The notes beneath the pieces are model-generated. The model was not told the origin of the DNA, made no database searches, and worked only from the letters and a program-made list of their open reading frames with translations. The position numbers and the translations under genes were made by a program. From assembly GCF_003334355.1 (NCBI RefSeq), contig NZ_QOWP01000002.1: a DNA stretch of 64,000 nucleotides; one strand, given 5' to 3'. The stretch's first letter is position 1. Each line of letters starts with the position of its first letter. Below, one piece after another: positions 30,650 through 31,068 of the stretch. Source of the stretch: Escherichia coli (GTDB lineage Bacteria > Pseudomonadota > Gammaproteobacteria > Enterobacterales > Enterobacteriaceae).

Positions 30650-30817
30650 ATGAGAGGACTTGCATACAATCCCGGCATTCTTCCGGCAGAAATGATTATT
30701 CGCCAACGCGTAAAGCCAATGCCATCGAGAGAGGAATTGCTTAAGAGAAATTCTTTTCCATCAGTAAATCAAAACAAATATCTGAATGCGATGTGGCGCA
30801 AAGGAGGCAACCAGTGA
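30650..30817 (+). CDS. hypothetical small protein
   Basis: 55 aa. Confidence 0.3.
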
Positions 30818-31068
30818 GTAATTCAGCACGACTACAGCTTGGTTTTTCACCGCTATCAAAAACTATCATGCTGGCAAAAATGCGCGATGTTGAAGGTGGA
30901 CGTATGCGCGTTGGCAATGATCCAGGTCGTGATGTTACCAATGAGGCTGCTCAATTGGTGTGGCGACTGGTCATGGCTGAAGGTGGTGAGATCGCGTGGG
31001 AGCTGGATGATGGTTCTCGCATGGTGTTGAAGGCAGAAAAGCAGGAGGCAACCAGTGAGCAAGATTGA
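30814..31068 (+). CDS. hypothetical protein
   Basis: GTG start after AAGGAGG; 84 aa. Confidence 0.35.

Follow-up and report, generated by a model that had tools for sequence, protein, structure and literature searches.

The stretch of DNA analysed here, referred to as the window, comprises 64 kb of an E. coli chromosome and carries the early-left operon of a P22/HK620-like lambdoid prophage of E. coli on its plus strand. The genes of interest in this operon follow one another in the order erf, ssb, abc2, DUF2737, DUF7446, and Ead/Ea22-like; their coordinates, together with those of the other features discussed below, are given in Table 1. The early-left end of the prophage abuts torI, which is followed by dsdC, dsdX, and dsdA (32473-36746 for this whole part of the window), and in genomes that do not carry the prophage, dsdC adjoins a tRNA-Arg gene. 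The position of the prophage is presumably the argW attachment site used by the KplE1 prophage of K-12. No integrase gene was found between the ea genes and dsdC, which we take to fit a layout of the HK620/KplE1 type, where attP separates int from torI.

Table 1. Genes, junction copies, and related features of the window; the last line gives P22 genes in the coordinates of NC_002371.
Feature	Position	Strand	Remarks
Erf-like single-strand annealing protein gene	29301-29936 (start approximate)	+	phage recombinase class that could use short homologies
abc2, anti-RecBCD gene	30343-30639	+	anchor of the motif-independent sample
DUF2737 / phrog_1117 gene, 55 aa	30650-30817	+	homologous to HK620 hkaI and P22 orf56; ends ..WRKGGNQ-stop
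extended left-hand junction, CGCAAA + 16-mer, 22 nt	30797-30818	+	common to EaE/hkaH-type 3' ends (..QLRKGGNQ-stop)
junction copy 1, AGGAGGCAACCAGTGAG	30802-30818	+	SD AGGAGG, spacer CAACCA, GTG start of the DUF7446 gene
DUF7446 (PF24233, phrog_1578) gene, 84 aa, function unknown	30814-31068	+	cassette gene between the two copies
241-bp indel unit	30819-31059	+	gene body plus one junction copy; missing precisely from L035
junction copy 2, identical 17-mer	31043-31059	+	SD and GTG start of the Ead/Ea22-like gene
Ead/Ea22-like gene (PF13935), 227 aa	31055-31738	+	GTG start
equivalent of Sf6 'bsq3; boundary sequence', 31 nt	31056-31086	+	29/31 identical by inspection; 5' end of the Ea22-like gene
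dsdC	32910-33851	-	
dsdX	34063-35400		
dsdA	35418-36746		
P22 duplicated-junction genes eaF and eaD (L205, NC_002371)	4497-4856 and 3907-4500	-	

Two copies of one translation-initiation junction

According to the original prediction, the same 16-mer, composed of a Shine-Dalgarno (SD) sequence and a GTG start, precedes two consecutive early-left ORFs that start at 30814 and 31055. The exact string was indeed present at both places: GGAGGCAACCAGTGAG occurs at 30803-30818 and at 31044-31059, in both cases on the plus strand, and ORFs of 84 and 227 aa open at the two GTGs, likewise on the plus strand and within one early-left operon, as had been claimed. These were the only two exact copies in 64 kb, and no third copy was detected in the window when up to two mismatches were allowed. 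By chance, 0.03 copies of the 16-mer would be expected in 64 kb, and two copies were found in 0 of 100 dinucleotide shuffles. Because an A precedes both copies, the exact repeat extends to 17 nt (AGGAGGCAACCAGTGAG). A repeat finder independently returned the pair 30802-30821 and 31043-31062, with 17 exact bases, 19 of 20 bases identical overall, and a spacing of 241. The layout is the same in both copies, where the SD sequence AGGAGG is followed by the 6-nt spacer CAACCA and then by GTG.

At both copies, the upstream ORF reads through the SD sequence. At copy 1, the TGA stop of DUF2737 (30815-30817) overlaps the GTG start of the DUF7446 gene to form GTGA, and the frame of the DUF2737 ORF yields the ending ..RKGGNQ-stop. 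At copy 2, the same 16 bases are read differently by the DUF7446 ORF (..EATSEQD-stop), the stop of which lies at 31066-31068, so that this gene overlaps the Ea22-like gene by 14 nt. The arrangement of both copies, with an SD sequence 6 nt before the GTG and inside the upstream ORF, and with overlapping stops, is the one expected of a coupled stop/start junction. Because each upstream ORF ends on or just past the next start codon, the junction genes are tightly packed and probably translationally coupled. The role of each copy as a ribosome-binding site and start is well supported, both by the sequence and by comparative conservation of the start codon, with ATG found at the same position in homologous junctions of other phages.

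No plus-strand terminator-like site was found between 30343 and 31738, that is, from abc2 through the Ea22-like gene, and the number of sigma-70 promoter-like matches in 29200-32900 was 0, compared with 5.9 ± 2.3 expected from shuffles. Three plus-strand terminator-like hairpins were observed at the end of the operon, at 32229-32280 and 32457-32476. The operon contains another GTGA stop/start overlap, at 28515-28518 (ggaggtgaGTGAtg), in which the SD and spacer are different; hence, the overlap architecture is general in the operon, whereas the 16-mer is confined to ea junctions. Separately, a 14-nt exact direct repeat, ATGGAGCTGTTAAT, was noted at 28463-28476 and 28648-28661, within two adjacent early-left ORFs; it encodes G-A-V-N in both, and its position is not a gene boundary.

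The RNA folds around the two copies were unremarkable (z = +1.36 and -1.72), and RNA folding revealed no SD-sequestering hairpin common to both. The repeat finder detected no inverted repeat involving the junction motif in the window, and no Rfam family was found anywhere in the window. A conserved RNA structure around the copies was thus considered and rejected, as the folds were neither common to both copies nor unusually stable.

Partners and breakpoints of the junction in other phages

Occurrences of the motif in other phages were collected through an exact scan of IMG/VR with the 16-mer, which yielded at least 120 contigs and 139 occurrences among the matches listed; these counts, like those for RefSeq prophages given below, include many near-duplicates and do not represent independent events. 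The expectation that the motif would recur at gene boundaries in other phages was borne out across at least 120 contigs when the neighbouring genes were tabulated. Among the IMG/VR matches listed, the GTG was in 131 of 135 cases the start of an ORF that either had at least 40 aa or reached the end of the contig. At least eight unrelated gene families began at this GTG, and the majority of the genes were Ea22-like (MS[KE]I[DN]YQALRE..). Besides Ea22-like and DUF7446, the downstream families were those beginning MSVTVEK.., MSESKCQ.., MSVYLID.., MSNYLYW.., MSNRFYM.., and MSIVQRC... On the upstream side, about a dozen unrelated ORFs ended in the motif among the matches listed, in two frames. Those in frame A end ..RKGGNQ-stop and include the EaE/hkaH-type, DUF2737, and family U2 (..AAQIRKGGNQ-stop); those in frame B end ..EATSExx-stop, and their stop falls within the opening codons of the Ea22-like gene. 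As a result, unrelated proteins bear junction-encoded C-terminal tails of the form ..RKGGNQ-stop or ..EATSE[QR][DN]-stop (for example, in L016, L036, L058, and L098).

Among the IMG/VR matches listed, 29 combinations of an upstream with a downstream family had the exact 16-mer, and nearly all combinations of the common partners were found. When the upstream gene was EaE-type or DUF2737 and the downstream gene was Ea22, DUF7446, D2, or D4, every combination was seen, which constitutes a four-gamete pattern. Between unrelated families, identity dropped to 0.26-0.28, a random level, within 0-6 nt to the left of the 16-mer and 0-4 nt to its right. With respect to named phages, the exact motif was present in HK629 (gp35 to gp34) and vB_EcoP-720R6 (EaE to Ea22), and both exact copies, together with DUF7446, were present in Wanchaivirus PDP110P2; HK620 (hkaH to hkaG) and Sf6 (gp23 to gp22) carried the motif with one mismatch. 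In the lambda int-N region, no copy of the 16-mer was found within three mismatches, and lambda ea22 is not preceded by the motif.

Some ORFs located between two exact copies (L021, L084, L106, and L169) combine an Ea22-like N-terminus (MSKIDYQ..) with an EaE-type C-terminus (..QLRKGGNQ-stop), indicating that the EaE-type and Ea22-like families are mosaic with each other.

The same 16-mer was also observed in at least 25 Paraburkholderia species (L294-L370), where it forms an SD+GTG(A) junction in a single conserved operon of the chromosome, between an ORF ending ..MKAGGNQ-stop and an ORF of about 540 aa that starts with GTG. The occurrence there is independent and vertically inherited. In a census of genome contigs, one match among those listed had a lambdoid context and the rest came from unrelated taxa; about 140 matches to the 16-mer would be expected by chance in the 298 Gb covered, and most matches outside Paraburkholderia look like chance.

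As controls for ASCERTAINMENT, an abc2-anchored, an E. coli RefSeq, and a DUF7446-anchored sample were used. The abc2-anchored sample consisted of 80 loci that were chosen without the motif, through an Abc2 at least 98% identical, encoded two genes upstream. When these loci were compared with the window by blastn, homology ended at 30798 in 46 loci and at 30817-30825 in 26, and it resumed at 31039-31044 in 42 loci. A copy of the motif with no more than two mismatches was present in 69 of these loci. The gene orders found after DUF2737 numbered more than 50, a figure that reflects order diversity only, the gene-order strings having been built on longest-ORF starts, which makes their motif tags imprecise. 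Among 5426 complete E. coli genomes in RefSeq, 1706 matched part of 30560-31300, and only 56 contained the whole arrangement. In a spread sample of 30 of the RefSeq matches, several alignments ended at 30818, the last base of junction copy 1, or began at 31043. Homology therefore breaks at the edges of the motif also in samples that were independent of it.

The 46 of 80 close relatives that lose homology at 30798, a position within the extended left-hand junction, end ..WRSGKK-stop instead and continue with an hkaH-type gene (compare L121, 1950-1975). The 3' end of DUF2737 in the window, from 30799 onward (..RKGGNQ-stop), matches the last six codons of EaE/hkaH-type genes. Given that the DUF2737 of the window has an EaE/hkaH-type tail, and that its relatives have ..WRSGKK-stop followed by hkaH, the comparison suggests that an old deletion or fusion placed the junction beside DUF2737.

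An exact empty site for the 241-bp unit was found in L035, which contains the left flank (98.7% identical to the window), one motif copy, and the right flank (90.3% identical). The unit itself was 99.6-100% identical behind unrelated or diverged upstream genes: in L016, the DUF7446 cassette (99.6% identical) followed an unrelated EaE-type gene, and in L120, it followed a DUF2737 region only 76% identical to that of the window. Other cassettes, of 253-1405 bp, were also located between two exact copies of the motif. In the DUF7446-anchored sample of 80 loci, 51 had the junction, with at most one mismatch, at both ends of the cassette, and the upstream neighbour of the cassette was DUF2737 in 33 loci, an EaE-type gene in 12, and other genes in 5. 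Diverged DUF7446 homologues, a lineage not found in the phage collection searched, had the junction in the diverged forms GGAGCCGCACTATGAG and GAGGCCGCCCAATGAG, where ATG occupies the start position. Because these homologues keep homologous, diverged junctions, the junction is old and has been passed on vertically as well. Its conservation may in part reflect function only, through the SD, the start, and coding in two overlapping frames. The crossovers behind the simple presence or absence of the cassette in the window and L035 could have taken place outside the motif, in the more extended homologies that flank it (abc2-DUF2737 on the left side, and the Ea22 N-terminus/bsq3 on the right side).

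Explanations for the distribution of the junction

The mosaicism of lambdoid phages has long been debated, with homologous exchange at short conserved linkers on the one side and random illegitimate joining followed by selection on the other. For the locus studied here, we favour the explanation, with a probability of roughly 0.7, that a translation-initiation junction doubles as a short homology patch for the reassortment of ea-region genes; the recombination role of the motif is one that we infer from comparisons of sequences. The patch would consist of the 16-22 nt that many otherwise unrelated pairs of genes have in common in the ea regions of lambdoid and P22-like phages of E. coli, and rare homologous or short-homology recombination at this patch would join any upstream partner with any downstream partner. 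Annealing proteins of the Erf/Red-beta/RecT type encoded by phages could plausibly drive such exchanges, during co-infection or infection of lysogens, and Erf may be the one that acts at these junctions. The DUF7446 cassette would be gained through exchange at the junctions, and recombination between the two direct repeats, or slippage from one to the other, would remove it. For RecA or Red to recombine efficiently, 16-22 bp is a short length, and the events must therefore be rare. It was reported that Rad52-like phage recombinases (Red-beta, Erf, and RecT) recombine regions with only short stretches of homology (PMC3945230), and that RecET, at low frequency, can use 5-13 bp (PMC2327257). An illegitimate event is still needed to attach a new gene to the motif in the first place. 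Identical strings of 16-22 nt beside many unrelated genes cannot be the product of independent illegitimate joins. Exchange within a short common homology would be expected to produce both the matrix of reassorted partners and the base-precise breakpoints. The proposal in the original prediction that the repeat marks a module junction for the shuffling of ea genes is supported, at the level of comparative data, by the families of partners, the empty site in L035, and the fact that breakpoints fall at the edges of the motif.

The main rival invokes function and descent only: the ribosome-binding/overlap junction would derive from an ancestral EaE/Ea22 junction and be kept by selection, genes would be shuffled illegitimately (the Hendrix model), and the motif would be no substrate for recombination. 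We regard this as a minority possibility that deserves to be taken seriously. The junction is clearly functional, with its SD, start, and overlapping stops; diverged lineages keep diverged versions of the same junction, in line with vertical inheritance; and the Paraburkholderia operon, which is unrelated and vertically inherited, has the 16-mer as SD+GTG, so that function alone suffices there. In addition, illegitimate recombination with selection is, according to PMC3029335, the mainstream explanation for most mosaic joints, at which boundary sequences are usually missing. However, independent illegitimate events cannot remake the same 16 bases, including CAACCA, beside about a dozen upstream and at least eight downstream families. 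Nor does this account predict that common partners occur in all combinations, that breakpoints cluster within a few nt of the motif edges instead of being scattered upstream of the SD, or that other junctions of the same operon have different SD and spacer sequences. Function, descent, and illegitimate recombination with selection together account for why the junction persists, but they leave its combinatorial distribution unexplained.

A more far-reaching version of the homology-patch explanation would make the junction a universal 'plug-and-play adaptor' of the ea region, which supplies SD and start to incoming genes, ends the upstream ORF in either of two frames, and stays identical at its many sites in a host-specific phage population because recombination is frequent (concerted evolution), perhaps with help from the neighbouring Erf/SSB/Abc2 recombination module. 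We consider this version improbable. If it were true, the ea region would be a homology-driven array of cassettes, integron-like but without a site-specific recombinase. That a dedicated recombinase or nuclease, of integron or homing type, instead recognises the 16-mer and thereby inserts and excises single-gene cassettes seems very improbable. Several different cassettes do lie between identical direct repeats with base-precise ends, and HK629 has an HNH endonuclease gene in the same region. But no inverted-repeat or hairpin architecture exists in or around the motif, and no dedicated recombinase is consistently adjacent, the window having only Erf/SSB/Abc2 upstream; furthermore, the edges shift by 0-6 nt from one partner to another, as expected for homology and not for a fixed cleavage site, and the copies tolerate single mismatches and drift with lineage. 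Least credible, to the point of being negligible, is a chance repeat or the leftover of a local tandem duplication of the 5' end of one gene. Although short SD-containing strings recur in any genome, and both genes begin with Met-Ser, hundreds of other phage contigs carry the motif, at junctions that are homologous as well as at junctions that are not. Chance was ruled out by the shuffles and the IMG/VR occurrences, and paralogy or tandem duplication of the two genes by a BLASTP comparison (E = 11) of the DUF7446 and Ea22-like proteins, which belong to different Pfam families.

Since most mosaic joints have no linker, and this junction has many unrelated genes on either side of it, the combination of such a junction with an exact empty site and base-precise breakpoints provides a clean natural substrate for the linker model. 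The junction is also of value for annotation, because it fixes the GTG starts of many small ea-region ORFs, and it explains the RKGGNQ or EATSE(Q/R)(D/N) C-terminal tails common to unrelated proteins.

Relation to known systems

Like integron cassettes and their attC sites, the ea genes at the junction are promoterless single-gene cassettes in variable order with a common flanking element. Unlike integrons, they have neither an attC-like imperfect palindrome nor an integron integrase, and what flanks them is a direct repeat of 16-22 nt, which at the same time is the ribosome-binding site. An integron-type or palindromic site was rejected on account of the missing inverted repeat, the unremarkable folds, and the lack of an integrase in the operon. 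The DUF7446 gene also resembles a moron in being a small accessory gene of unknown function that is present or absent between conserved neighbours. In contrast to morons, the cassette has no promoter or terminator of its own, lies between direct repeats, and is expressed from the operon via the common SD/GTG; the moron reading was rejected because 0 promoter-like sites and no plus-strand terminator-like site were found at the cassette.

Related junctions exist in P22. The P22 gene eaE (eaE/orf45) ends ..AQLRKG.. with cagcttcgcaaaGGAG, which is homologous to the extended junction of other phages and which the window shares only in the CGCAAA+GGAG part. Moreover, P22 eaF and eaD both begin ..CAGCCCAATGAGCAACATCGAC (MSNIDK..), which represents P22's own duplicated junction. 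These P22 ea junctions differ from those of the window in that they are a different sequence variant and use ATG as the start; the exact 16-mer was not present in P22, which has a diverged homologue only.

The modular theory of Susskind and Botstein (Microbiol Rev 1978, as cited in PMC3029335) posits homologous linkers between interchangeable modules, and the junction agrees with it as a short homology at which homologous recombination would reassort modules. It differs in that the modules here are single small accessory genes, not functional blocks, and in that the linker is embedded in coding sequence, comprising the upstream C-terminal tails (in two frames) and the first two downstream codons.

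The closest counterparts are the boundary sequences (bsq). Short conserved boundary sequences were proposed to be foci of recombination by Clark, Inwood, Cloutier and Dhillon (2001, J Mol Biol 311:657) for HK620, as cited in PMC3029335, and the Sf6 genome record annotates bsq2 and bsq3 as boundary sequences. The exact 16-mer was not found described in the literature searched, which left out Clark et al. 2001; a search on bsq names returned only unrelated papers, and breakpoints were not discussed in PMC9836094. In the window, the bsq3 equivalent overlaps the last 4 nt of copy 2. The 16-mer differs from Sf6 bsq3 in lying upstream of it and containing the SD and start codon, and it also precedes non-Ea22 genes, where bsq3 is missing; the gp23 to gp22 junction of Sf6, which bears the motif, has no bsq annotation in the Sf6 record. 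What the junction has in common with boundary sequences and linkers is that it is short and conserved between phages with unrelated flanking genes, lies at gene or module boundaries of the early region, coincides with mosaic breakpoints, here also in motif-independent samples, and shows reassortment of its partners. Taken together, the junction is a further example of the boundary sequences of lambdoid phages, and not a new kind of element.
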